NCBI RefSeq assembly: GCF_044324875.1
Contig: NZ_CP172185.1
DNA: 64,000 nucleotides
DNA from: Escherichia coli
GTDB lineage: Bacteria; Pseudomonadota; Gammaproteobacteria; Enterobacterales; Enterobacteriaceae
Strand: one strand, 5' to 3'
The translations under genes and the position numbers were made by a program. This document shows, one piece after another, positions 895 through 15,940 of this stretch. The notes below the pieces were generated by a model. It searched no databases and was not told where the DNA came from. It was given only the letters and a program-made list of their open reading frames with translations. Numbering within the stretch: the stretch's first letter is position 1; each line of letters opens with the position of its first letter.

Positions 895-2052
895 TTGAAA
901 CGTAGTCTGCTTTTTTCTGCCGTGCTGTGTGCGGCGTCATTGACCTCCGTCCATGCGGCGCAGCCGATCACTGAACCGGAGTTTGCCTCTGATATTGTCG
1001 ATCGTTATGCCGATTATATTTTTTACGGCAGCGGTGCCACGGGGATGGCGCTGGTAGTTATCGACGGTAACCAGCGCGTCTTTCGTAGTTATGGCGAAAC
1101 GCGACCTGGTAATAACGTTCGCCCGCAGCTGGATTCGGTCATACGTATTGCTTCCCTCACCAAGTTAATGACCAGTGAGATGCTGGTGAAATTGCTCGAT
1201 CAGGGGACCGTGAAGTTAAACGATCCGCTAAGTAAATATGCTCCGCCAGGCGCACGCGTACCGACCTACAATGGGACGCCCATTACGCTAGTGAATCTGG
1301 CAACCCATACCAGCGCCCTGCCCCGTGAACAGCCCGGTGGCGCGGCACATCGTCCGGTATTTGTCTGGCCAACGCGCGAGCAACGCTGGAAATACCTTTC
1401 CACTGCCAAACTAAAAGCCGCGCCGGGCAGCCAGGCCGCGTACTCCAACCTTGCGTTCGACCTGCTGGCAGATGCACTGGCGAATGCGTCCGGCAAGCCT
1501 TATACCCAGTTGTTTGAAGAGCAGATTACCCGCCCATTGGGGATGAAAGACACCACCTACACCCCCTCGCCGGACCAGTGCCGCCGTTTAATGGTTGCTG
1601 AGCGTGGTGCCAGTCCGTGCAATAACACGCTGGCGGCAATTGGCAGCGGCGGAGTCTATTCCACGCCTGGCGATATGATGCGCTGGATGCAGCAGTATTT
1701 GTCATCTGATTTTTATCAGCGCAGTAACCAGGCAGATCGCATGCAGACGTTGATTTATCAGCGCGCGCAGTTTACGAAAGTGATTGGCATGGATGTCCCC
1801 GGCAAAGCGGACGCGCTTGGTTTAGGCTGGGTATATATGGCCCCGAAAGAGGGTCGTCCAGGGATTATTCAGAAGACAGGTGGTGGTGGCGGTTTCATTA
1901 CCTATATGGCGATGATCCCGCAGAAGAACATTGGCGCATTTGTGGTGGTCACTCGTTCGCCATTGACGCGCTTTAAAAATATGAGCGATGGCATCAATGA
2001 CCTGGTGACCGAACTGAGCGGGAATAAACCGTTGGTCATCCCCGCATCCTGA
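895..2052 (+). CDS. ampH: Penicillin-binding protein AmpH (class C beta-lactamase-like DD-peptidase)
   Basis: 385-aa ORF with N-terminal signal peptide, SxxK active-site motif (SLTK) and YSN motif; length matches AmpH. Confidence 0.9.
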   Translation: MKRSLLFSAVLCAASLTSVHAAQPITEPEFASDIVDRYADYIFYGSGATGMALVVIDGNQRVFRSYGETRPGNNVRPQLDSVIRIASLTKLMTSEMLVKLLDQGTVKLNDPLSKYAPPGARVPTYNGTPITLVNLATHTSALPREQPGGAAHRPVFVWPTREQRWKYLSTAKLKAAPGSQAAYSNLAFDLLADALANASGKPYTQLFEEQITRPLGMKDTTYTPSPDQCRRLMVAERGASPCNNTLAAIGSGGVYSTPGDMMRWMQQYLSSDFYQRSNQADRMQTLIYQRAQFTKVIGMDVPGKADALGLGWVYMAPKEGRPGIIQKTGGGGGFITYMAMIPQKNIGAFVVVTRSPLTRFKNMSDGINDLVTELSGNKPLVIPAS

Positions 2053-2735
<683 letters not shown>

Positions 2736-2749
2736 AACCTATTTCTTCA

Positions 2750-4137
<1,388 letters not shown>

Positions 4138-4148
4138 TGGATTTGCCC

Positions 4149-5054
4149 CTATATTTCCAGACACCTGTTATCACTTAACCCATTACTGGCTTGCTGCCGT
4201 AGATATTCCCGTGGCGAGCGATAACCCAGTGCACTATGCGGATGCCATTCGTTATAATGCTCGAACGCCTCTGCAAGGTTCTTTGCTGCCGTTAACCCGT
4301 CTGGTTTGGGCATGACACTGATGTAGTCACGCTTTATCGTTTTCACGAAGCTCTCTGCTATGCCGTTACTCTCCGGACTCCGCACCGCCGTGCTCTTCGG
4401 TTCAAGCCCCAACATCCGGGCAAACTGCCGTGTTTCATTAGCCCGGTAGCATGAACCATTATCCGTCAGCCACTCTACTGGAGACGCCGGAAGCTCGTTG
4501 CCGAAGCGGCGTTCCACCGCTCCCAGCATGACGTCCTGTACTGTTTCACTGTTGAAGCCGCCCGTAGTGACCGCCCAGTGCAGTGCCTCACGGTCACAGC
4601 AGTCCAGCGCGAACGTGACTCGCAGTTTTTCTCCGTTATCACAGCGGAACTCGAACCCGTCAGAGCACCATCGCTGATTACTTTCTTTCACAGCCACTCT
4701 GCCTGTATGTGCCCGTTTCGATGGCGGTACAGCAGGTTTTCGCTCAAGCAACAGCGCATTCTGGCGCATGATCCGGTAAACACGTTTGGCATTGATCGCA
4801 GGCATACCATCAAGTTCTGCCTGTCTGCGAAGCAGCGCCCATACCCGACGATAACCATACGTTGGCAGCTCTCCGATAACATGGTGTATACGGAGAAGCA
4901 CATCCGTATCATCAGTGTGACGACTGCGGCGGCCATCCATCCAGTCATCGGTTCGTCTGAGAATGACGTGCAACTGCGCACGCGACACCCGGAGACAACG
5001 GCTGACTAAGCTTACTCCCCATCCCCGGGCAATAAGGGCGCGTGCGCTATCCAC
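4149..5054 (-). CDS. insD: IS2 transposase OrfB (InsD), DDE integrase-like
   Basis: 301-aa ORF recognised as IS2 InsD; overlaps insC in the arrangement typical of IS3-family frameshift fusion. Confidence 0.9.
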
Positions 5055-5377
5055 TTTTTTGCCCGTCCATATTCAACGGCTTCTTTGAGGAGTTCATTTT
5101 CCATCGTTTTCTTGCCGAGCAGGCGCTGGAGTTCTTTAATCTGCTTCATGGCGGCAGCAAGTTCAGAGGCAGGAACAACCTGTTCTCCGGCGGCGACAGC
5201 AGTAAGACTTCCTTCCTGGTATTGCTTACGCCAGAGAAATAACTGGCTGGCTGCTACACCATGTTGCCGGGCAACGAGGGAGACCGTCATCCCCGGTTCA
5301 AAGCTCTGCTGAACAATTGCGATCTTTTCCTGTGTGGTACGCCGTCTGCGTTTCTCCGGCCCTAAGACATCAATCAT
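5012..5377 (-). CDS. insC: IS2 OrfA (InsC), HTH DNA-binding protein
   Basis: Frame beginning [40 protein letters not shown]…, 121 aa from the internal Met of ORF 5012..5422. Confidence 0.85.
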
Positions 5378-5468
5378 CTGTTCTCCAATGACTAGTCTAA
5401 AAACTAGTATTAAGACTATCACTTATTTAAGTGATACTGGTTGTCTGGAGATTCAGGGGGCCAGTCTA

Positions 5469-7004
5469 TTCAGTATCGAACTGATCAACGTTCACATCCA
5501 ATACACCACCGTTAGTTACGGTGATGGTATTGGCGTACAGGTTGTAATCAGCACCCCAACCTGTAGATTCGGTCAACGCAACAGTACTGTAGGAGTTAAT
5601 AGTCAGATGATCGGTATCAACGTAACCATCTTCACCAATGTTCAGCGAAGAACCGTTAGTTAAATCGATAGTATCTGAAGTTAATTTAGATTCCGAAACA
5701 TTAACCTGAGAAGCATTATTAACTGTCAAGGTATCAACGATGGAACGACCTGTAGTATCCCATTCAGAACCGTTGTTCAACGCTACGTTAAATACACCGC
5801 TCTGGAAGACCTTGTCATCAACAACACGTTTCCAGTCATTGTTTTCATATGTTGCATTAGGAGTAAGGCTGTTTGTAGCAACATCATACATTGCTGACGT
5901 TTCAGCAACGTTATAAATTGCCTGACCAACCCACTTGCTTCCGTTATCAAGAGTGAGGTTCAGTTCATCAACGTTGAGGCCATCATCAGTCCAACCACCG
6001 TTGGTATCTTTCAGCCCGTCACCGTTGGAATCATGACCATTCGGATCAAAATTACTATTCCAAGTGCTGTTAAATGCAACATCGCCCATCAGCGTTGAAT
6101 TGCTGAAGTATACGTTGTTCTTCATTGCATAGTCGGAACCTGAATCAGTGAAGGACATTGCAACATCTCCCGGACCGGTATAATCACTCGGTTCACTAGA
6201 GTTGCCAAAGTGTCCTGTTTTGACATAAGTATCGCTATCCAGAATAATGTCTGAACCAGAAGTCACTGTGGAATCTTTTACAGAGATATTGTTATCCCAA
6301 GTATGAGATTCGGTAGTATAAGTTTCGTTGTAAGTATTACCTTGAGATAATGCAATACCTGCAATGCGGGAGTTATTTGAAATATTGATGTTACTTTCTA
6401 CATCAAGATTAACAGCAACACCTTCACTGGTATCAAATGTCTCATTTGTGTGTTTGGTTACATCACCATCTTTATAAGAATCAGTGAAGTAAAACGCTTC
6501 ATAATCATCATCAATGGTAGTGTTAGCAATGTTAAGAGTGAAAACATCACCATCACGCCAGTTTGTGTCAACAACAGCATCAGTGTAAAAATCATATCCA
6601 ACCAGAAGATCACTATCTGCATCCAAACGATCATAATAACCGCCTGGCTTCAAAGAAGTAATCGAACCGTGAATCACTGAATTACTGATATCAAGCTGAT
6701 TAGCAGTACTGTCTGCATAATCATGGTTCAAATAATAGGTTGAGATCGTGCCGTTAACGGTATCGCCGTTAAAGGACTGATCGAAATCACCATTGGTGTT
6801 GTTGTAATAGACAAAACCACTATAGTTTACATAGTTGCCATCTACAGTGCCTGCCTTATCCATATGATCCCAATCAAGTGCAGTAACGGGATTGTCGTAA
6901 TAAGTCCAGGTGTCATAAGTAGTTGCATTAGCCTGAGAGGTGATAGCCAGAGTGCAAGCCAATGCTAATTGTGATACTACAAGTTTCTTTTTCCAGGAGT
7001 GCAT
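5469..7004 (-). pseudogene. yaiT: Autotransporter YaiT, N-terminal (signal peptide + passenger) fragment; stop lies inside the IS2 terminus
   Basis: ORF 5466..7004 starts MHSWKKKLVVSQLALACTLAITSQANA (signal peptide); Asn/Thr/Asp-rich passenger; terminates at a stop contributed by the IS2 end. Confidence 0.8.
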
Positions 7005-7529
7005 TTGTCATCCCTCCTCAGGGACGTAATAAGTTGATCCATCAATTATCAATGCATAGAAAACATCTTATGTTTCGCGTTGACGATTATGCGGCGTTAT
7101 AGAGGAATGGTTCAATTATTCTTTCCCCGAAGTCCGGTTACGGACATATATAAAGCACGGAGGAACACACAAAGAAAAAATTGATAAAGGCTTGATGTTT
7201 CAACAAGTTAACAGGAGTTCCATTTTTAAAGCATATGCATTTAAAATATCAAACACACAAACCAGACAAATAATCTATCAATAACCAATGAACTTTAAAT
7301 CATTCTGTTTTTGATAACGCAATCAAATCCGTAAAAACAATAATCCAGGGATATAAATAAAAATTAAAAATATTTTCAGTGAATATGAAATTATTGCTGT
7401 TTCTATTACAAAGATGTCATGGACTCTCTTTCATTCTCTTCTTGTCAACATCGCGACAACTTTCGTAAAACATCCCCACCCTGCTTCAGGTATACTATGC
7501 CCCTCGATTCCACAAACATCAGGCAGACC

Positions 7530-8504
7530 ATGACAGACTTAATCCAACGCCCTCGTCGCCTGCGCAAATCTCCTGCGCTGCGCGCTATGTTTGAAGAGAC
7601 AACACTTAGCCTTAACGACCTGGTGTTGCCGATCTTTGTTGAAGAAGAAATTGACGACTACAAAGCCGTTGAAGCCATGCCAGGCGTGATGCGCATTCCT
7701 GAGAAACATCTGGCACGCGAAATTGAACGCATCGCCAACGCCGGTATTCGTTCCGTGATGACTTTCGGCATCTCTCACCATACCGATGAAACCGGCAGCG
7801 ATGCCTGGCGGGAAGATGGACTGGTGGCGCGGATGTCGCGCATCTGCAAGCAGACCGTGCCTGAAATGATCGTGATGTCAGACACCTGCTTTTGTGAATA
7901 CACTTCTCACGGTCACTGCGGTGTGCTGTGCGAGCATGGCGTCGACAACGACGCGACTCTGGAAAATTTAGGCAAGCAAGCCGTGGTTGCAGCTGCTGCA
8001 GGTGCGGACTTCATCGCCCCTTCCGCCGCGATGGATGGTCAGGTACAGGCGATTCGCCAGGCGCTGGACGCTGCGGGCTTTAAAGATACGGCGATTATGT
8101 CGTATTCGACCAAGTTTGCCTCTTCCTTTTATGGCCCGTTCCGCGAAGCGGCAGGAAGCGCATTAAAAGGCGACCGCAAAAGCTATCAGATGAACCCAAT
8201 GAACCGTCGTGAGGCGATTCGTGAATCATTGCTGGATGAAGCCCAGGGCGCAGACTGCCTGATGGTGAAACCAGCTGGAGCGTACCTCGACATCGTGCGT
8301 GAGCTGCGTGGACGTACTGAATTGCCGATTGGCGCGTATCAGGTGAGCGGTGAGTATGCGATGATTAAGTTCGCCGCGCTGGCGGGTGCTATAGATGAAG
8401 AGAAAGTCGTGCTCGAAAGCTTAGGTTCGATTAAGCGTGCGGGGGCGGATCTGATTTTCAGCTACTTTGCGCTGGATTTGGCTGAGAAGAAGATTCTGCG
8501 TTAA
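7530..8504 (+). CDS. hemB: Porphobilinogen synthase (delta-aminolevulinate dehydratase)
   Basis: Frame from [18 protein letters not shown]… (324 aa) recognised as HemB; ORF track extends further upstream to 7419. Confidence 0.92.
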
Positions 8505-8543
8505 TGATCATTATGCCGGGTTATCCAACCCGGCATTTCCCCC

Positions 8544-9395
8544 TTACCCCGCCCGATAAAACGGTTTATCCCCAAGGATTGTCGCCCGATGCATTATCCG
8601 CCGCTGTGGCAGGTAATCCGCATTGGCATAGTGCTGAGTCACGCGGTTATCCCAAATCGCAATATCATTTGGTTGCCAGCGCCAGCGCACCTGAAACTCC
8701 GGTTTGGTGATATGGGCAAACAAAAAACTTAACAAGGCTTCGCTCTCTTTCTCGCTGACATCAACAATTCGCGTAGTAAAGCCTTCATTCACAAACAGCG
8801 CCTGTTTACCGCTCACCGGATGCGTTCGCACCACCGGATGTAGTAACGGCGGATTTTTCGCGACCGCCTCGCGCCAGCGTTGATGCTCCTCCTCCGTTTT
8901 GCGGTATTTGTATTCTGGGAACGATTTACGGAAATCATGCTCCGCACGCAGCCCGCTCAACAGCTGGCGGAAGGGAACAGAGAGTGCCTCATACGCCGCA
9001 ATACCGCTGGTCCATAGCGTATCGCCGCCAGTCGAGGGTAACTCTTTCGCCGCCAGAATCGCCCCAGCAGGAGGCGTTTCAATAAATGTCACATCGGTAT
9101 GCCAGTTGTCGTTATCTGGCGGATTATCGTTATGAGTATCCAGTACGATAATCTCGTCAACCCCTTCGGCATGAGGGTAAACAGGATGAATATGCAGCTC
9201 GCCAAAACGCTGGGCCAGCGCGCGTTGCTGCTGCGGCGTAATGGCCTGTTCACGCAGAAACACCACCTGATGACGCAGTACCGCATGGTAAAGCTGTTCA
9301 AACTGGTTATCACTTAACGGGCGCGTCAGGTCGGCACCCGTAATTTGTGCGCCAATATACGGCCCCAGCGGGGTAATGCTCAGACGTTCACTCAT
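8544..9395 (-). CDS. tauD: Taurine dioxygenase (2-oxoglutarate/Fe(II)-dependent)
   Basis: 283-aa ORF, last gene of a four-gene block with 4-bp start/stop overlaps; recognised as TauD. Confidence 0.92.
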
Positions 9396-10219
9396 TGTAC
9401 TTCTCCATGCCAGGGCGTGAGGCGGCGCTGTAACGCGCGCAGACCCAGTTCTAAAAGAAAGGCGATAATCGCAATCACCGCGATCCCCGCCAGCACCACG
9501 TCAGTCGCGAGAAATTCACCCGCTGACTGGACCATAAAACCCAAACCGCGCGTCGCGGCAATCAGCTCCGCCGCCACCAGGGTAGACCAGCCCACACCCA
9601 GACCAATGCGTAATCCGGTGAGAATTTCCGGCAGCGCACCGGGCAAAATAACAAACCACAGCACCTGCGCACGGCTGGCACCCAGCGACTGGGCGGCACG
9701 AATGCGAACCTGCTGCGCGCTTTTCACCCCCGCCAGCGCCGACATCGCCACAGGTGCAAAAATCGCTAAATAGATCAGTAAGATCTTCGAGGTTTCACCA
9801 ATACCAAACCAGATCACCATCAGCGGCAAATACGCCAGCGGCGGCACCGGGCGATACAATTCAATTATCGGATCCAGAATGCCGCGCACCGTCGGGCTTA
9901 GCCCCATGGCGATCCCAACCGGAATGCCGATCAACACCGCCGCAAGTAGCGCCAGCACAATGCGCGTCAGGCTGGCTGCCAGATGCTGCCACAGGGTGGC
10001 GTCCATAAATCCCTGCGGCCCGGCAATGGTGAGCAGTTTTGCCAGTACCTGTTGCGGTGGCGGCAAAAACAGCGGGCTAATCAGGTGCAGCGCCGCGACT
10101 GCCCACCATACAGTGAGCAAAACCGCTAACGTGCCAATGCTTAAGGTCACCTGACGCGAGAGCGGCCAGCGCCATTTCAGCCGATGCGAATGCAGTTTTT
10201 CATTAATGAGCACACTCAT
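9392..10219 (-). CDS. tauC: Taurine ABC transporter permease
   Basis: 275-aa polytopic membrane protein; overlaps tauB stop and tauD start. Confidence 0.9.
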
Positions 10220-10983
10220 GAGAACGCCTCCCGTTGCTCAAATACGCGGCTTAAAACATATTCGCGCATGGCGATGAATTGTGGATCGGACTTGATGCTG
10301 CGGCTCGACTCTCCCGCAACAAAGCGGCGAGCAAAGTTGAGCGGCAGCCGCTCCAGCACGCGGCCAGGGCCGGGTGAAAGCAGAACCAGTTCAGTCGCCA
10401 TAAACACCGCTTCTTCTATATCGTGGGTAATCAACAGCACCTGCTTTCCCGTCTCCTGCCAGAGTTTCAGCAGCAGGGTTTGCATCTGGTCGCGGGTGAA
10501 GGCGTCCAGCGCACCAAACGGTTCATCGAGTAATAACAGCTGGGGATTTGCCGCCAGCGCGCGGGCAATCCCCACCCGCTGACGTTGACCGCCGGAAAGC
10601 TGCCAGATGTAGCGTTTTTCTGCGCCTTCCAGCCCCACTTTTTTCAGCATCTGGTGCGCGATTTCCAGTCGCTGCATTTTCTCAACACCTGCCAGTTGCA
10701 GGCCGAACACCACGTTGTCCCGTACATTGCGCCACGGTAGCAGCCCTTCATTCTGAAAAACTACGCCCCGCTCTGCTCCCGGCCCCTCAATGCACTTACC
10801 CGCCAGTTGAATGCTGCCATGCTGATAAGGCACAAAACCGGCAATCAAATTCAGCAAGGTGGTTTTGCCACAGCCAGACGGCCCCAGAACCACCAGAAGC
10901 TCGCCGCTTTCCAGCGTCAGGTTGATATCTTCCAACGCCGGTTTGCCGCCATAATCGGCGTAAAGATGAGAGATTTGCAGCAT
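10216..10983 (-). CDS. tauB: Taurine ABC transporter ATP-binding protein
   Basis: Walker [13 protein letters not shown] signature LSGGQRQR, Walker B LLLLDEP; 255 aa. Confidence 0.93.
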
Positions 10984-10995
10984 CTGCGCCTCCTT

Positions 10996-11958
10996 TTATT
11001 GCACGAAGCGCGAGGTCACGTACTGGCTGTAATCGTTCGCTACAGCCGGGACTTTGCCCTGCTCTTTCAAAAACTGCGCGGTGTCGATGATCGCTTTGTT
11101 CACCGATCCGGTCAGTTCTGCCGTTTGCTGCTGCGGTGTCAGATAGGTATTCCCCTTCACCAGCCCCGGAACGTCACCTTCAGGTACGCCGCTTAAACGC
11201 GCCAGCTTGCTGATGTTTTCCGGCTGTTTCAGCCACGCGTCTGGGTTAGCAATGTACGGTTGCTGAGCATCGATGGCGCTTTTAGCGAACGCTTTCACGA
11301 CCTCAGGATGTTTCTCGGCAAAATCTTTGCGCACCACCCAGACGTCCAGCGTTGGCGCGCCCCACTGCCCGACCTGTTCAGAATCGGTCAACACCTTGCC
11401 GTCTTTTTCCAGGGCGTTAACCGCCGGTGCCCAGACATAAGCACCATCAATGTCTCCCCGTTGCCATGCGGCGATAATCGCGGGTGGCTGCAGGTTCACT
11501 ATCTCCACTTGTCCGGGTTTTATACCCCAGTGTTTCAGCGCCGCCAGCAGGCTGTAGTGGGTGGTGGAGATAAACGGTACGGCGATGCGTTTGCCAATGA
11601 GATCTTCCGGTTTGCTGATAGTTTTCTTTACCACCAGCGCTTCGGAGTTACCCAGTTTTGACGCCAGTAAGAAGACTTCAATCGGCACCTGTTGGCTGGC
11701 TGCCACCGCTAATGGGCTGGAACCGAGGTTACCGATTTGGACATCGCCTGAAGCCAGCGCCCGCACGATGCTGGCTCCGCTGTCAAACTTGCGCCAGTCC
11801 ACCGTCGCCCCGCTCTCTTTAGCAAAGGTGTTATCAGCCTGAGCCACTTTCGCCGGTTCAGCGGAGGTTTGATAGGCCACGGTGACGTTCACCGCCTGTG
11901 CCTGAAAAGCGATGAATGCCAGTGCGGCAAGAAGTGTGTTACGCGATGAAATTGCCAT
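10996..11958 (-). CDS. tauA: Taurine ABC transporter periplasmic binding protein
   Basis: Start placed at MAISSRNTLLAALAFIAFQAQA (signal peptide), 320 aa; ORF track extends 19 codons further upstream. Confidence 0.88.
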   Translation of the reverse strand: MAISSRNTLLAALAFIAFQAQAVNVTVAYQTSAEPAKVAQADNTFAKESGATVDWRKFDSGASIVRALASGDVQIGNLGSSPLAVAASQQVPIEVFLLASKLGNSEALVVKKTISKPEDLIGKRIAVPFISTTHYSLLAALKHWGIKPGQVEIVNLQPPAIIAAWQRGDIDGAYVWAPAVNALEKDGKVLTDSEQVGQWGAPTLDVWVVRKDFAEKHPEVVKAFAKSAIDAQQPYIANPDAWLKQPENISKLARLSGVPEGDVPGLVKGNTYLTPQQQTAELTGSVNKAIIDTAQFLKEQGKVPAVANDYSQYVTSRFVQ

Positions 11959-12015
11959 GATTGTCTGCTCCCCTGTCTTGTTATAGGAGCAGTATTCAAG
12001 AATAAAAACATTCAT

Positions 12016-12566
12016 TAAAAGAATTAGTCGTTATCGCACAGATGATTTTATTCTTAGCAAAAAAGCGGCAAAGGAAAGATTAAATATGCAATTACACCCA
12101 CGCTGACAATTCAGTAAGTTACTGCACTTCATTTTTATTAATGCATAAACAAGCAGAACATAATGTCTTTTATTTTATTAACAGCAATATATATAATGAA
12201 ATCATTATATTCACATTGCATATATAACTGTATCATTCTCAATCAACCACATAATACATTCACATAATGTATATAATCCATATTTGTGCCTAGAACATAT
12301 TTTTAATATGTAATTAATTGACAAACTAAATCACATCTAAATACAATATATAAAACAAAATAACTATACAAACCAAACACACAAACACTTAACATATGAA
12401 TTACATAAAAGATTACGCAGTCGTATCCCCGTACCTGAAAGCCCCTTATTTTTCAGCTATCAGTAATTTTTAACACTTAAAAATTAGCATCTGTCTGTGC
12501 CAGAGATTACGTCTCTGCGAGCGTCGTTGTGCTTGTAGTATAATAAATAAAATGGAGTGTCATTAA
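12016..12566. promoter_or_regulatory. AT-rich ~550-bp divergent intergenic region between tauA and yaiS (promoter region; candidate nucleoid-protein binding)
   Basis: No ORF of 60 aa or more on either strand; long A/T tracts and A/C-rich runs (acaaaccaaacacacaaacac); lies upstream of both divergent gene blocks. Confidence 0.5.
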
Positions 12567-13238
12567 GTGGATAAGGTTTTAGATTCAGCCATCCTTTCTT
12601 CGGCAAATAAAAGAAAGGGTATCCTTGCTATTGGCGCACATCCTGACGATATAGAATTGGGCTGTGGCGCGTCGCTTGCTCGTCTTGCGCAAAAAGGAAT
12701 TTATATCGCAGCCGTGGTGATGACTACCGGCAACTCTGGCACAGATGGAATAATCGATCGCCATGAAGAATCGCGCAACGCCCTAAAGATATTAGGGTGC
12801 CACCAAACTATTCATCTTAATTTTGCTGACACCCGCGCGCATTTACAGCTCAATGATATGATTTCCGCCCTGGAAGATATCATTAAAAATCAAATTCCTT
12901 CTGATGTTGAAATCATGCGGGTATATACCATGCATGATGCCGACCGCCATCAGGATCATCTCGCTGTTTATCAAGCTTCAATGATTGCCTGCCGCACTAT
13001 TCCACAAATTCTCGGCTACGAAACCCCGAGTACCTGGCTTTCATTTATGCCTCAGGTTTTTGAATCCGTTAAAGAAGAATATTTCACAGTCAAACTTGCT
13101 GCATTAAAAAAACATAAAAGCCAGGAACGACGCGATTATATGCGTCATGATCGCCTGCGTGCAGTTGCACAATTTCGCGGGCAACAGGTCAATAGCGGTC
13201 TGGGTGAAGGCTTTGTAATTCATAAAATGATTCTTTGA
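12567..13238 (+). CDS. yaiS: LmbE/PIG-L family deacetylase
   Basis: GTG start preceded by GGAG; signature AHPDDIE near N-terminus; 223 aa as drawn, exact start uncertain. Confidence 0.7.
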   Translation: MDKVLDSAILSSANKRKGILAIGAHPDDIELGCGASLARLAQKGIYIAAVVMTTGNSGTDGIIDRHEESRNALKILGCHQTIHLNFADTRAHLQLNDMISALEDIIKNQIPSDVEIMRVYTMHDADRHQDHLAVYQASMIACRTIPQILGYETPSTWLSFMPQVFESVKEEYFTVKLAALKKHKSQERRDYMRHDRLRAVAQFRGQQVNSGLGEGFVIHKMIL

Positions 13239-13247
13239 GCAAATTGC

Positions 13248-14444
13248 ATGAAAACCTGGATATTTATATGTATGGCCGTAGCAATATTGCTATGGTTCCT
13301 GAGTACGTTAAGGCGTAAGCCCAGCCAAAAAAAAGGTTGTATTGACGCCATTATACCTGCGTATAACGAAGGCCCGTGTCTGGCACAGTCACTGGATAAT
13401 CTACTGCGTAACCCTTATTTTTGCCGGGTAATTTGCGTTAACGACGGCTCCACGGACAATACCGAAGCGGTCATGGCGGAAGTCAAACGCAAATGGGGCG
13501 ACCGCTTTATTGCCGTCACGCAAAAAAATACCGGTAAAGGTGGTGCGCTGATGAATGGCCTCAATTACGCCACCTGCGACCAGGTTTTTTTAAGTGATGC
13601 CGACACCTATGTTCCGCCCGATCAAGACGGAATGGGCTATATGCTGGCAGAAATAGAGCGCGGTGCTGATGCCGTAGGCGGCATTCCCTCTACTGCGTTG
13701 AAAGGCGCGGGTCTGTTACCGCACATCCGCGCGACCGTAAAGTTGCCGATGATTGTTATGAAGCGCACGCTACAGCAGCTCCTGGGCGGCGCACCGTTTA
13801 TTATCAGCGGTGCCTGCGGGATGTTCCGTACTGATGTATTGCGTAAGTTCGGTTTCTCCGATCGTACTAAAGTCGAAGACCTTGATCTCACCTGGACATT
13901 GGTGGCAAACGGCTATCGTATTCGGCAGGCGAATCGCTGCATCGTATACCCACAGGAATGCAACAGCCCGCGTGAGGAGTGGCGTCGCTGGCGGCGTTGG
14001 ATTGTGGGCTACGCGGTCTGTATGCGCCTGCATAAAAGGCTTTTATTTAGCCGCTTCGGTATCTTCAGTATATTTCCTATGCTGTTGGTTGTGCTTTATG
14101 GCGTTGGGATTTATCTCACTACCTGGTTTAATGAATTCATTACCACCGGGCCGCATGGTGTGGTGTTGGCAATGTTTCCGCTTATCTGGGTCGGCGTAGT
14201 TTGTGTTATTGGTGCTTTTAGCGCCTGGTTTCATCGTTGCTGGTTGTTGGTGCCTTTAGCACCGCTTTCCGTTGTGTATGTATTATTAGCTTACGCCATC
14301 TGGATTATTTATGGACTTATTGCCTTTTTTACTGGACGCGAACCTCAGCGCGACAAACCCACCCGCTATTCCGCACTGGTGGAAGCGTCAACCGCTTATT
14401 CCCAACCTTCTGTCACAGGAACTGAAAAACTTTCTGAAGCTTAA
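13248..14444 (+). CDS. yaiP: Membrane-embedded family-2 glycosyltransferase (synthase-like)
   Basis: 398 aa; N-terminal TM, GT2 core with DAD motif (FLSDADTYV) and RRW-containing segment (EEWRRWRRW), then several C-terminal TM helices. Confidence 0.8.
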   Translation: MKTWIFICMAVAILLWFLSTLRRKPSQKKGCIDAIIPAYNEGPCLAQSLDNLLRNPYFCRVICVNDGSTDNTEAVMAEVKRKWGDRFIAVTQKNTGKGGALMNGLNYATCDQVFLSDADTYVPPDQDGMGYMLAEIERGADAVGGIPSTALKGAGLLPHIRATVKLPMIVMKRTLQQLLGGAPFIISGACGMFRTDVLRKFGFSDRTKVEDLDLTWTLVANGYRIRQANRCIVYPQECNSPREEWRRWRRWIVGYAVCMRLHKRLLFSRFGIFSIFPMLLVVLYGVGIYLTTWFNEFITTGPHGVVLAMFPLIWVGVVCVIGAFSAWFHRCWLLVPLAPLSVVYVLLAYAIWIIYGLIAFFTGREPQRDKPTRYSALVEASTAYSQPSVTGTEKLSEA

Positions 14445-14561
14445 TGTTAAAGAGAAAATATTCAGATTGCAGACCAGGTAATTATTGATGAAACTGCAGG
14501 TGAAGTTGTTATCGGAGCGAATACCCGTATTTGTCACGGTGCCGTTATTCAGGGTCCGGTA

Positions 14562-15002
14562 GTGATTGGCGCAAACTGCCTGATAGGTAATTATGCGTTT
14601 ATTCGTCCTGGCACAATAATCAGCAATGGCGTAAAAATTGGTTTTGCCACCGAAATTAAAAATGCGGTTATTGAAGCGGAAGCAATGATTGGTCCGCAAT
14701 GCTTTATCGCCGACTCGGTAGTTGCAAACCAGGCATATTTGGGCGCACAAGTACGTACCAGTAATCATCGTCTGGATCAACAGCCCGTGTCTGTTCGAAC
14801 TCCAGAGGGAATTATCGCTACCGAATGCGATAAATTAGGTTGTTATATCGGGCAGCGTTCACGCCTTGGCGTACAAGTTATTATTTTGCCTGGGCGAATT
14901 ATTTCCCCGAACACGCAACTTGGCCCGCGCGTGATTGTAGAACGTAATTTACCTACCGGAACTTATTCACTCCGACAAGAACTTATCCGTACAGGAGATT
15001 AA
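14562..15002 (+). CDS. yaiX: Hexapeptide-repeat acyltransferase (YaiX-like); 5' end uncertain, possibly truncated
   Basis: Left-handed beta-helix repeats (VIGANCLIGNYAFIRPGTIISNGVKIG…). Frame is open back to 14454, directly after the yaiP stop, with no in-frame ATG before the GTG at 14562. Confidence 0.55.
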   Translation: MIGANCLIGNYAFIRPGTIISNGVKIGFATEIKNAVIEAEAMIGPQCFIADSVVANQAYLGAQVRTSNHRLDQQPVSVRTPEGIIATECDKLGCYIGQRSRLGVQVIILPGRIISPNTQLGPRVIVERNLPTGTYSLRQELIRTGD

Positions 15003-15003
15003 A

Positions 15004-15777
15004 ATGATAAAACGGACGTTATTAGCGGCGGTCATTTTTAGCGCATTGCCCGCTTATGCCGGGTTAACTTCCATTACCGCGGGCTACGATTTTACCGATT
15101 ATTCTGGCGATCATGGCAACCGTAATTTAGCGTATGCTGAACTGGTGGCGAAAGTTGAAAACGCAACGCTGCTTTTTAATCTTTCCCAGGGGCGTCGTGA
15201 TTATGAAACTGAACATTTCAATGCCACTCGCGGTCAGGGTGCGGTCTGGTATAAATGGAATAACTGGCTGACAACCCGAACGGGTATTGCCTTTGCGGAT
15301 AATACGCCGGTCTTTGCCCGCCAGGATTTTCGTCAGGATATTAACCTGGCACTGTTGCCAAAAACGCTTTTCACGACCGGTTATCGCTACACGAAATATT
15401 ACGATGATGTCGAAGTCGATGCCTGGCAAGGCGGCGTATCACTCTATACTGGCCCGGTGATCACCAGCTATCGCTATACCCATTATGACTCCAGCGATGC
15501 AGGTGGTAGTTACAGCAATATGATTTCCGTGCGTCTGAATGACCCGCGCGGCACTGGTTATACGCAACTATGGCTAAGCCGCGGAACAGGTGCTTACACC
15601 TATGACTGGACGCCAGAAACACGCTACGGCAGCATGAAGAGCGTCAGTTTGCAACGTATTCAACCGCTGACTGAGCAACTTAATCTCGGGCTGACGGCAG
15701 GTAAAGTGTGGTACGACACCCCAACCGATGATTATAACGGTCTGCAACTTGCAGCCCATCTGACCTGGAAATTCTGA
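15004..15777 (+). CDS. yaiO: Outer-membrane beta-barrel protein YaiO
   Basis: 257 aa; signal peptide MIKRTLLAAVIFSALPAYA; alternating aromatic residues and C-terminal …HLTWKF ending in Phe, typical of OM barrels. Confidence 0.8.
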   Translation: MIKRTLLAAVIFSALPAYAGLTSITAGYDFTDYSGDHGNRNLAYAELVAKVENATLLFNLSQGRRDYETEHFNATRGQGAVWYKWNNWLTTRTGIAFADNTPVFARQDFRQDINLALLPKTLFTTGYRYTKYYDDVEVDAWQGGVSLYTGPVITSYRYTHYDSSDAGGSYSNMISVRLNDPRGTGYTQLWLSRGTGAYTYDWTPETRYGSMKSVSLQRIQPLTEQLNLGLTAGKVWYDTPTDDYNGLQLAAHLTWKF

Positions 15778-15887
15778 TTCCTTCTGCCGCCCGCTATCCG
15801 GGGCGGCCTTCCCTGCCGATTAGCCCCACCCCCTTTCCTCTTTGTTTTCCGACCACATTCACCGGATAAATTTTATTCTCCAGTGTT

Positions 15888-15940
15888 ATATACTATAGGG
15901 GGGTATGCATTGACATATAGAATACCCCCCTATAGTATAT
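15888..15940. promoter_or_regulatory. frmR operator/promoter: perfect 19-bp inverted repeat ATATACTATAGGGGGGTAT, 15-bp spacer
   Basis: 15888-15906 is the exact reverse complement of 15922-15940; located about 25 bp upstream of the frmR start. Confidence 0.7.

Follow-up and report, generated by a model that had tools for sequence, protein, structure and literature searches.

The locus studied here lies in a stretch of 64,000 nucleotides of the Escherichia coli contig NZ_CP172185.1 (hereafter the window) and consists of the four genes yaiS, yaiP, yaiX and yaiO and of the AT-rich region that precedes them (Table 1). As described in the initial annotation of this DNA, the genes are co-directional and tightly spaced: all four open reading frames (ORFs) are on the same strand, with 9 bp between yaiS and yaiP and 1 bp between yaiX and yaiO, the yaiX start overlaps the 3' end of yaiP by 23 bp in intact alleles, and a GGAG stands 9 nt ahead of the yaiO ATG. 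We regard the domain assignments of the four products and the status of the cassette as one selected unit as close to certain. Much more tentatively, on a judgement that falls a little short of evenly balanced, we read the cassette as a self-contained and mobile unit that H-NS silences at the level of transcription in E. coli and that would make a glycan based on N-acetylglucosamine (GlcNAc) for, or outside, the cell surface. In the literature searched we found no functional study of the cluster and no assigned function, in line with what had been stated before.

Table 1. Features of the yaiS-yaiP-yaiX-yaiO block and of its flanks (positions of the window)
Feature	Position	Strand	Description
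tauDCBA	8544-11958	-	Left flank of the block
AT-rich divergent control region (tauA/yaiS spacer)	11959-12566		GC 0.26-0.34; in K-12, a 'promoter island' bound by H-NS
Sigma-70 promoter-like site for yaiS	12318-12347	+	TTGACA-18-TACAAT, 11/12 consensus positions
yaiS	12567-13238	+	GTG start, 223 aa; predicted cytoplasmic zinc de-N-acetylase of the PIG-L/LmbE family; intact in the window
yaiP	13248-14444	+	398 aa; predicted inner-membrane, synthase-type family 2 glycosyltransferase
yaiX	14422-15002	+	Predicted cytoplasmic left-handed beta-helix protein; 5' frameshift here; canonical-start ORF 14562-15002
yaiO	15004-15777	+	257 aa; outer-membrane beta-barrel predicted to have 14 strands, with Sec signal peptide
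GC-rich hairpin past the yaiO stop	15786-15807	+	7-bp stem gccgccc/gggcggc, 8-nt loop, no T-tract
frmRAB	15944 onward	+	Right flank of the block

The product of yaiS had been proposed to be a PIG-L/LmbE-type deacetylase carrying an AHPDDIE motif, and this proposal was borne out by a match to the Pfam family PF02585 (PIG-L; E = 7.8e-25) and by the position of the motif at residues 24-30. In NCBIfam, the protein stays under every equivalog cut-off; its best model is BshB1 (78 bits for a cut-off of 182), and MshB and Mca were also matched. The best relatives of solved structure are archaeal diacetylchitobiose deacetylases (E = 7e-12), i.e. enzymes that remove the acetyl group from the non-reducing GlcNAc of chitobiose, followed by TT1542, BcZBP and BshB1. 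The 14 orthologues compared all keep residues H25, D27, D28, H128, D130 and H131 (AHPDD ... HxDH) and a C-terminal block HxSQ...FRGxQ...ExF comprising H183, S185, Q186, R189, Y191, F203, R204, G205, Q207, E214 and F216. YaiS thus shares domain and motifs with diacetylchitobiose deacetylase, BshB1, MshB and PIG-L, and differs from them in being encoded in an operon with a membrane glycosyltransferase of family 2 (GT2) and not in a thiol or glycosylphosphatidylinositol pathway. Its sequence contains no signal peptide, N-terminal hydrophobic segment or transmembrane (TM) segment.

The 3' end of yaiS also carries an antisense ORF (13107-13223, - strand) whose product shares 95 % identity with YkiC (39 aa), a detected antisense small protein (PMC6001520). 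In many RefSeq genomes, the PGAP pipeline annotates a YkiC-like ORF and flags yaiS as a truncated pseudogene. We rejected these flags as a sign of decay, since the 223-codon frame is intact there and the flag goes with the antisense ykiC annotation.

YaiP matches PF00535 (E = 1e-27), PF13632 and, with a lower score, Glyco_transf_21 (E = 1.2e-7). Among curated models, PgaC_IcaA (TIGR03937) comes first with 100.4 bits, the next model reaching 43; as the cut-off is 422.3, YaiP is a relative of the PgaC/IcaA equivalog and not a member of it. BLASTP alignment with E. coli PgaC gave 28 % identity over 241 aa (E = 3e-19) and paired all the synthase motifs, i.e. NDGSTD/NDGSTD, DAD/DGD, VEDLD/TEDID, SGACGMFR/SGVIAAFR and RWRRW/QRLRW (YaiP first). 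The motif residues of YaiP (D66 of NDGSTD, D117-A-D119, E210-D211 and R247-W-R-R-W251, the latter within RRWRRW at 246-251) are invariant in 18 orthologues, including (Q/R)xxRW, which here opens with R and not Q; a C-terminal tail motif, TGxEPxRDKPTRY, is equally invariant.

In the AlphaFold2 model of YaiP (mean pLDDT 78), one N-terminal and three C-terminal TM helices are accompanied by interface helices. A Foldseek search of the PDB placed hyaluronan synthases (HAS) on top, followed by PcManGT and BcsA (TMq 0.50). The best match including the membrane part is to class I HAS (Chlorella virus HAS and Xenopus HAS1; TMq 0.58-0.63, E of about 1e-12 to 1e-13), which are likewise single-protein, membrane-embedded GT2 synthases and use UDP-GlcNAc; they differ from YaiP in sequence (14-16 % identity), have more TM helices, alternate two donors and lack tailoring partners. 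The nearest non-orthologous neighbours in the AlphaFold Database (AFDB; TMq about 0.7) are membrane GT2s, several of them fused to NodB-type deacetylase domains. By its motifs and modelled architecture, YaiP is of the membrane-embedded GT2 synthase type (the PgaC/NodC/HAS/BcsA group), which upholds the earlier description of a synthase-like membrane GT2 with a DAD motif and an RRW segment. A polyprenyl-phosphate GT2 (GtrB, ArnC or DPMS type) was considered and rejected because (Q/R)xxRW is invariant and the fold scores for GtrB and ArnC are much lower (TMq 0.35-0.40 only, vs about 0.6 for HAS); the GT2-NodB-type fusions among the neighbours also support a synthase. An antisense transcript inside yaiP has been used as a reporter control (PMC4666370).

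The third protein, YaiX, had been taken for a hexapeptide acyltransferase; the fold was confirmed and the activity was not. YaiX matches the hexapeptide and LbH_EIF2B families of Pfam, and its best NCBIfam model is TIGR03992 (126 bits, below cut-off) in its C-terminal acetyltransferase region (archaeal GlmU-like). It aligns with residues 241-398 of Sulfolobus ST0452 without a gap over 158 aa (E = 1.6e-21), keeping the E-x-K and N-x-R-x-D positions, and this alignment places it in the GlmU/ST0452 N-acetyltransferase lineage. All 14 orthologues, though, read IGPQCF(I/V)AD where ST0452 has PHLSYVGD, a segment that we take to hold its catalytic His308 and Tyr311 and that corresponds to GHLTYLGD in GlmU. 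As the catalytic His-x-x-Tyr has become Pro-x-x-Phe in every orthologue, an acyltransferase activity of YaiX is plausible but unproven; it might possibly depend on another residue, such as the His of the invariant RTSNHRLD, which is not the His used by GlmU and ST0452. A further difference from these enzymes is that YaiX stands alone, with no nucleotidyltransferase domain. Like YaiS, YaiX has neither a signal peptide nor a TM segment in its sequence, and since both lack signal peptides, we predict that both are cytoplasmic.

For the window, alleles were compared with those of E. coli ECA64 (99.4 % identical overall), K-12 and a paralogous copy. With respect to these three, yaiX of the window has lost 1 bp in an A-run (A5 to A4, GAGAAAAAT to GAGAAAAT, at about 14453-14457), so that the first 11 codons lose the reading frame and no canonical start in frame precedes the GTG at 14562, from which the protein has 146 aa instead of 193. 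The missing base may be a genuine lesion or an artefact of sequencing through the homopolymer. In one E. coli protein cluster (P0111, 481 aa, 15 members), the YaiX beta-helix is fused in frame to the C-terminal part of YaiP, probably because of a frameshift where yaiP and yaiX overlap.

YaiO was confirmed as an outer-membrane beta-barrel. It is a member of its own family (TIGR04390, 184.3 bits for a cut-off of 32; PF19413, E = 4.7e-26) and consists of a signal peptide and the barrel alone, with no periplasmic domain. The AlphaFold2 model (mean pLDDT 93.4) has 14 strands and short loops on both sides. No PDB sequence matched it even at E <= 1; by structure, the TM-scores (TMq, Foldseek) were 0.73 for OmpG, about 0.6 for CymA, 0.58 for the PgaA barrel and 0.54 for BcsC. 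OmpG and CymA have the same strand number and size as YaiO, and differ from it in the lack of detectable sequence similarity, in their loops, which are very short in YaiO, and in that YaiO is encoded within a biosynthetic cassette. YaiO relatives fused to tetratricopeptide repeats (TPR) were looked for among 118 family representatives and dropped, none having been found; the few long matches were short repetitive ones. The gene is in use as a PCR marker for E. coli.

The four genes also keep together in other genomes. Host contigs were found via homologues of YaiO and YaiP and are host examples, not a census. The order PIG-L, GT2, left-handed beta-helix (LbH) protein, YaiO is the same in 13 of the 13 other loci examined in which YaiP is at least 60 % identical, with the same small overlaps, so that a conserved module is found across several orders of Proteobacteria. 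These loci comprise a second copy in E. coli and copies in Citrobacter, Superficieibacter, Salmonella, Acinetobacter, Stenotrophomonas, Pseudomonas viridiflava and metagenome-assembled genomes, one of which is labelled Alphaproteobacteria. Identity between distant loci and E. coli is 60-66 % for YaiP, 54-62 % for YaiX, 45-52 % for YaiS and 29-41 % for YaiO, and the next GT2s after the YaiP orthologues reach at most 32 % among the matches listed.

Within E. coli, the block is present in 4970 of 5426 complete genomes, 4250 of which have at least 80 % of it at a single site. Purifying selection acts on all four genes: dN/dS ranges from 0.05 (yaiP) to 0.24 within E. coli and from 0.06 to 0.10 in the comparison with Citrobacter FP75. 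On direct check, the four ORFs were intact in 11 of 11 sampled E. coli other than K-12. In K-12 MG1655 (positions 2559-3227 and 4587-5918 of its locus), codon Q186 of yaiS has changed from CAG to the amber codon TAG, which removes nine of the invariant residues, and yaiX contains the known IS2. The K-12 copy is thus a natural double mutant, which may explain why an activity has never been seen. Insertions of IS1 or ISEc20 occur in some other E. coli strains.

The cassette is also mobile. It was found on 49 PLSDB plasmids, 33 of them conjugative, and on a Rep3/MobA plasmid in Acinetobacter, and its GC content tracks that of the host, from 0.30 in Acinetobacter to 0.68 in Stenotrophomonas. The three IncF plasmids inspected (L103, L104 and L105) all have the four-gene block in the same order. 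They are a CNF2 (Vir-type) plasmid from cattle and two plasmids of Shiga toxin-producing E. coli (STEC), from pig and human; each has 0.8-2.2 kb of unannotated DNA upstream of the cassette, and on the pig plasmid (pSTEC388_2) insertion sequences lie on its flanks.

Other copies differ in their surroundings. In E. coli AVS0713, the second copy (positions 7674-10880 of its locus) lies in an island between cobU and insertion sequence remnants, beside ibrA/ibrB-like genes and a gene for a TonB-dependent receptor. Its YaiP, YaiX and YaiO are 94-97 % identical to those of the window; YaiS is only 62 % identical and the nucleotide match begins in the middle of yaiS (window 12903 onward), a pattern suggestive of a recombination breakpoint and of upstream control that differs from that of the window. 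In Salmonella enterica (positions 1048-9777 of its locus, an island or a plasmid with ccdAB), the cassette is preceded by a gene for a PapB-family regulator and, further upstream, by ibrA/ibrB-like genes and the gene of a YadA-anchor (Eib-like) adhesin. This hints at co-regulation with surface adhesins in Salmonella; a look at the DNA ahead of the other cassette copies revealed no PapB-like ORF. In the actinomycete Mumia quercus (coordinates 4011-6104 and 8951-10750 of its locus), a 698-aa ORF contains a distant GT2 (32 % identity to YaiP); some 3 kb away, a large ORF includes a YaiS-like PIG-L domain (125 bits), and the pairing of GT2 and PIG-L may thus reach beyond the Proteobacteria.

The region upstream of yaiS had been described as ORF-free and strongly AT-rich over 550 bp. 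Both properties were found again: there is no ORF longer than 40 aa, and GC is 0.26-0.34 over 11900-12500 vs 0.55-0.58 in tauA, and 0.29 in the 500 bp directly upstream of yaiS. The spacer is longer than stated, i.e. about 608 bp, and is common to the divergent tauA promoter. The longest tauA ORF (10996-12015, - strand) exceeds the annotated gene, which starts at 11958, by 57 nt at the 5' end, and the left boundary used previously (12016) was taken from this extended ORF. The comparison with the flanks gave a GC of 0.48 for the cassette vs 0.56 for tau and 0.51 for frm. Rfam returned no match at E <= 0.1 in the AT-rich leader or the rest of the block, and a structured RNA was dropped from consideration.

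Silencing of this DNA by H-NS had also been suggested, and for this point we relied on published K-12 data on the same spacer, not on this strain. In K-12, published work marks the spacer between yaiS and tauA as an H-NS site (PMC3946193) and counts it among the 'promoter islands' associated with H-NS and predicted foreign genes (PMC3661553). Genomic SELEX lists a constitutive RpoD promoter for yaiS with hexamers and spacing identical to those of the promoter-like site in Table 1 (PMC3946193). Among the copies of the cassette, the 500 bp upstream have a GC of 0.29-0.37 in most enterobacterial ones and of 0.43 on the IncF plasmid locus L103, and these upstream regions cannot be aligned with one another. 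The silenced part of the earlier description thus agrees with an AT-rich, H-NS-bound island that carries a yaiS promoter; the horizontally acquired part is only partly right here: the cassette is mobile elsewhere, yet the copy studied here is near-core in E. coli, and in Citrobacter braakii the cassette adjoins hemB, which likewise flanks tau-yai in E. coli.

A scan for promoters and terminators gave no signal above shuffle expectation between the four genes; with no such signal to split them, co-transcription of yaiS-yaiP-yaiX-yaiO is likely. The hairpin past the yaiO stop was not called by the terminator scan and was seen by reading the sequence. Closer to frmR, a long, near-perfect inverted repeat (15884-15938; tatactataggggggtat ... 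ataccccctatagtata) extends across the predicted promoter of frmR (TTGACA-17-TAGTAT) and is presumably the FrmR operator.

Three independent lines point to GlcNAc chemistry: the nearest curated family of YaiP is PgaC/IcaA, the relatives of YaiS are deacetylases of chitobiose and GlcNAc conjugates, and those of YaiX are N-acetyltransferases acting on glucosamine-1-phosphate (GlcN-1-P). Our tentative reading builds on these domains and folds, on motifs, synteny, purifying selection and predicted locations, and on the agreement of promoter and H-NS binding with the published K-12 data. YaiP, embedded in the inner membrane with its GT-A domain facing the cytoplasm, would polymerise GlcNAc from UDP-GlcNAc into a beta-linked chain, as PgaC, NodC or hyaluronan synthase do. 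YaiS would remove the N-acetyl group, in the cytoplasm, from a GlcNAc unit that is still within reach, be it the primer or the unit at the non-reducing end. YaiX, as a cytoplasmic trimeric beta-helix, would then re-acylate the freed amine or be a non-catalytic partner of YaiP. The product would have to cross the inner membrane, and YaiO, as a monomeric 14-strand channel of the size of oligosaccharide porins, would be its route across the outer membrane.

This order of events would resemble Nod-factor synthesis (synthase, cytoplasmic deacetylase, acyltransferase) more than that of poly-N-acetylglucosamine (PNAG), in which deacetylation is periplasmic. We favour it because both tailoring proteins are predicted to be cytoplasmic, no periplasmic, TPR or cyclic di-GMP (c-di-GMP) part was found, and the barrel has the size of an oligosaccharide channel. 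The likeness to the Nod system includes a GT2 of about 400 aa with one plus three TM helices, which is also the topology of NodC, then a de-N-acetylase and an acyltransferase-type protein, both cytoplasmic, as well as GlcNAc-based chemistry, and mobile, plasmid-borne genes. The differences are that YaiS belongs to PIG-L and NodB to carbohydrate esterase family 4 (CE4), that an LbH protein stands in place of NodA, that yai has no NodIJ-type ABC exporter and does have an outer-membrane barrel, and that YaiP scores only 29 bits with the NodC model (cut-off 550).

Several observations weigh against a GlcNAc-based glycan made in this way. For YaiX, the best Pfam matches are non-catalytic LbH domains, and the catalytic His and Tyr of GlmU/ST0452 are missing from every orthologue (n = 14). 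For YaiP, an Arg-first variant of QxxRW is typical of GT21 lipid glucosyltransferases, and some of its AFDB neighbours are automatically annotated as (beta-)monoglucosyl-diacylglycerol synthases. With four TM helices only and no partner such as PgaD or BcsB, a translocation channel in YaiP is not assured, and the cassette encodes no inner-membrane exporter; if YaiP did translocate the polymer during synthesis, cytoplasmic YaiS and YaiX would get little access to it. As for YaiO, it resembles many barrels, the match to PgaA being generic, and a crude count of lumen charges (8 acidic and 11 basic, with ambiguous alternate-residue assignment) is roughly balanced and gives no clue to the cargo.

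The parallel with PNAG-type systems drawn in the initial annotation holds for the PgaC-like motifs and the synthase fold, and is loose for the rest of the machinery. In its full form, i.e. a canonical synthase-dependent exopolysaccharide in which YaiP makes and translocates a long PNAG-like polymer that is partly deacetylated or acetylated and leaves through YaiO as porin to form a biofilm matrix, we consider it unlikely. With pgaABCD of E. coli and the staphylococcal icaADBC the cassette shares an inner-membrane GT2 with NDGSTD, DxD, (T/V)ED and (Q/R)xxRW, a de-N-acetylation step, an outer-membrane beta-barrel and a four-gene operon. PgaC/IcaA is indeed the nearest curated family of YaiP, with all synthase motifs aligned, the YaiP fold is like that of HAS and BcsA, GT2-deacetylase fusions occur among its structural neighbours, and the PgaA barrel is among the top Foldseek matches of YaiO. 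A yaiO transposon mutant of uropathogenic E. coli was also picked up by a screen for changes in the expression of type 1 fimbriae (PMC6727828).

However, YaiP stays at 100 bits vs the 422-bit cut-off of PgaC, and the yai deacetylase is a PIG-L protein predicted to be cytoplasmic, whereas PgaB and IcaB are periplasmic CE4 enzymes. YaiS and YaiX, having no signal peptides, could not reach a periplasmic polymer. No periplasmic hydrolase, deacetylase or other polymer-modifying enzyme and no TPR scaffold was met in or beside the cassette in any examined locus, and the extra LbH protein has no counterpart in pga. Likewise, no c-di-GMP receptor or co-polymerase (PgaD, PilZ, Alg44 or PelD) turned up in the examined loci or in the Pfam and NCBIfam results for the four proteins, where an unrecognised site is possible. 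Porins of synthase-dependent systems have 16-18 strands (16 in PgaA), whereas YaiO has 14 and no periplasmic domain, and none of the 118 family representatives is a TPR fusion.

A membrane glycolipid is, in our judgement, distinctly unlikely as the product. YaiP would here transfer GlcNAc to a lipid of the diacylglycerol, ceramide or polyprenol type, YaiS would convert it to a glucosamine (GlcN)-lipid, YaiX would N-acylate this lipid and YaiO would handle the amphiphile at the outer membrane. PIG-L enzymes typically act on GlcNAc carried by a lipid or a small aglycone (GlcNAc-phosphatidylinositol, GlcNAc-inositol or GlcNAc-malate), and the models matched by YaiS (BshB1, MshB and Mca) belong to this family. 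The RxxRW variant of YaiP and its Glyco_transf_21 match, its four TM helices only, and the AFDB neighbours labelled as beta-monoglucosyldiacylglycerol synthases (TMq about 0.70) also fit, and two cytoplasmic tailoring proteins suit chemistry on the inner leaflet. These labels, however, are automatic annotation, and the closest curated family of YaiP is by a wide margin a polysaccharide synthase. The relatives of YaiX work on soluble sugar-1-phosphates, and YaiO, in which no hatch or lateral opening was identified, resembles the soluble-sugar channels OmpG and CymA.

We find it improbable that YaiS and YaiX act before YaiP, by a logic like that of LpxC and LpxD, on UDP-GlcNAc or GlcNAc-1-phosphate and turn it into a sugar nucleotide with a free amine or another N-acyl group, YaiP then polymerising the altered sugar. 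Such a remodelling of the donor would remove the problem of access posed by a translocating synthase, and it is consistent with two cytoplasmic proteins and with a YaiX lineage that N-acetylates GlcN-1-phosphate and whose E-x-K and N-x-R-x-D positions are retained. The cassette, however, contains no nucleotidyltransferase gene, the nearest solved relatives of YaiS use GlcNAc or chitobiose and GlcNAc-aglycones rather than nucleotide sugars, and the GlmU-type catalytic His is missing from YaiX. That the cassette is a decaying, silenced relic with no present role in E. coli is scarcely credible: the double lesion in K-12, the 5' frameshift in yaiX of the window, the IS1 or ISEc20 insertions in other strains, the H-NS-bound region and the antisense transcript and small protein (PMC4666370, PMC6001520) would fit it, but the intact ORFs in all 11 sampled non-K-12 genomes, the dN/dS values within E. 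coli and between genera, the presence in 4970 of 5426 genomes and the repeated acquisition on conjugative virulence plasmids and islands do not.

Two further candidates were set aside. PADLOC gave no match for any of the four proteins, and a role in anti-phage defence was not retained. The xagABCD cluster of Xanthomonas, which has four genes including a GT2 (XagB) and is needed for biofilm, the nature of its polymer not being established (PMC3609779, PMC8042644), was considered as a characterised orthologue of yai and not retained. The comparison was made via the published primers only: these had no match beyond chance, at up to 3 mismatches, with Xanthomonadales yai cassettes, and their translations agreed with the yai proteins at 4-5 of 6-7 residues, i.e. 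at chance level. The lipobox-like ...SGIGAC encoded by the xagA deletion primer points to an exported lipoprotein and not to a cytoplasmic PIG-L protein, and the two clusters are probably different.

Returning to the GlcNAc-based glycan that we tentatively prefer, we would give only a small chance to its most specific form, a minimal, plasmid-transmissible and so far unrecognised glycan system of the Proteobacteria producing a short amine-modified (de-N-acetylated or re-acylated) chito-oligosaccharide or GlcN-lipid, i.e. a Nod-factor-like surface or signalling molecule of enterobacteria and other Gram-negative bacteria and not a matrix polymer. Such a system would bring together a synthase of the NodC/PgaC kind with four helices, a PIG-L deacetylase in the cytoplasm, an atypical LbH partner and a porin of its own with 14 strands. 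The presence of the cassette on IncF virulence plasmids (CNF2 and STEC) and in an island adjacent to ibrAB suggests that it is selected in host-associated settings. K-12 knockout collections cannot reveal its role, since the K-12 copy is doubly defective and lies behind an H-NS-silenced promoter. Four near-core genes of the best-studied bacterium are thus still without an assigned function. If they do make a GlcNAc-derived glycan, E. coli, Citrobacter, Salmonella, Acinetobacter, Stenotrophomonas and Pseudomonas would possess an extra envelope or secreted sugar, with possible consequences for adhesion, biofilm, phage receptors and host recognition. Combining PIG-L and LbH tailoring in the cytoplasm with a porin of 14 strands, and lacking TPR and c-di-GMP parts, the cassette would then represent a distinct architecture among synthase-type systems.

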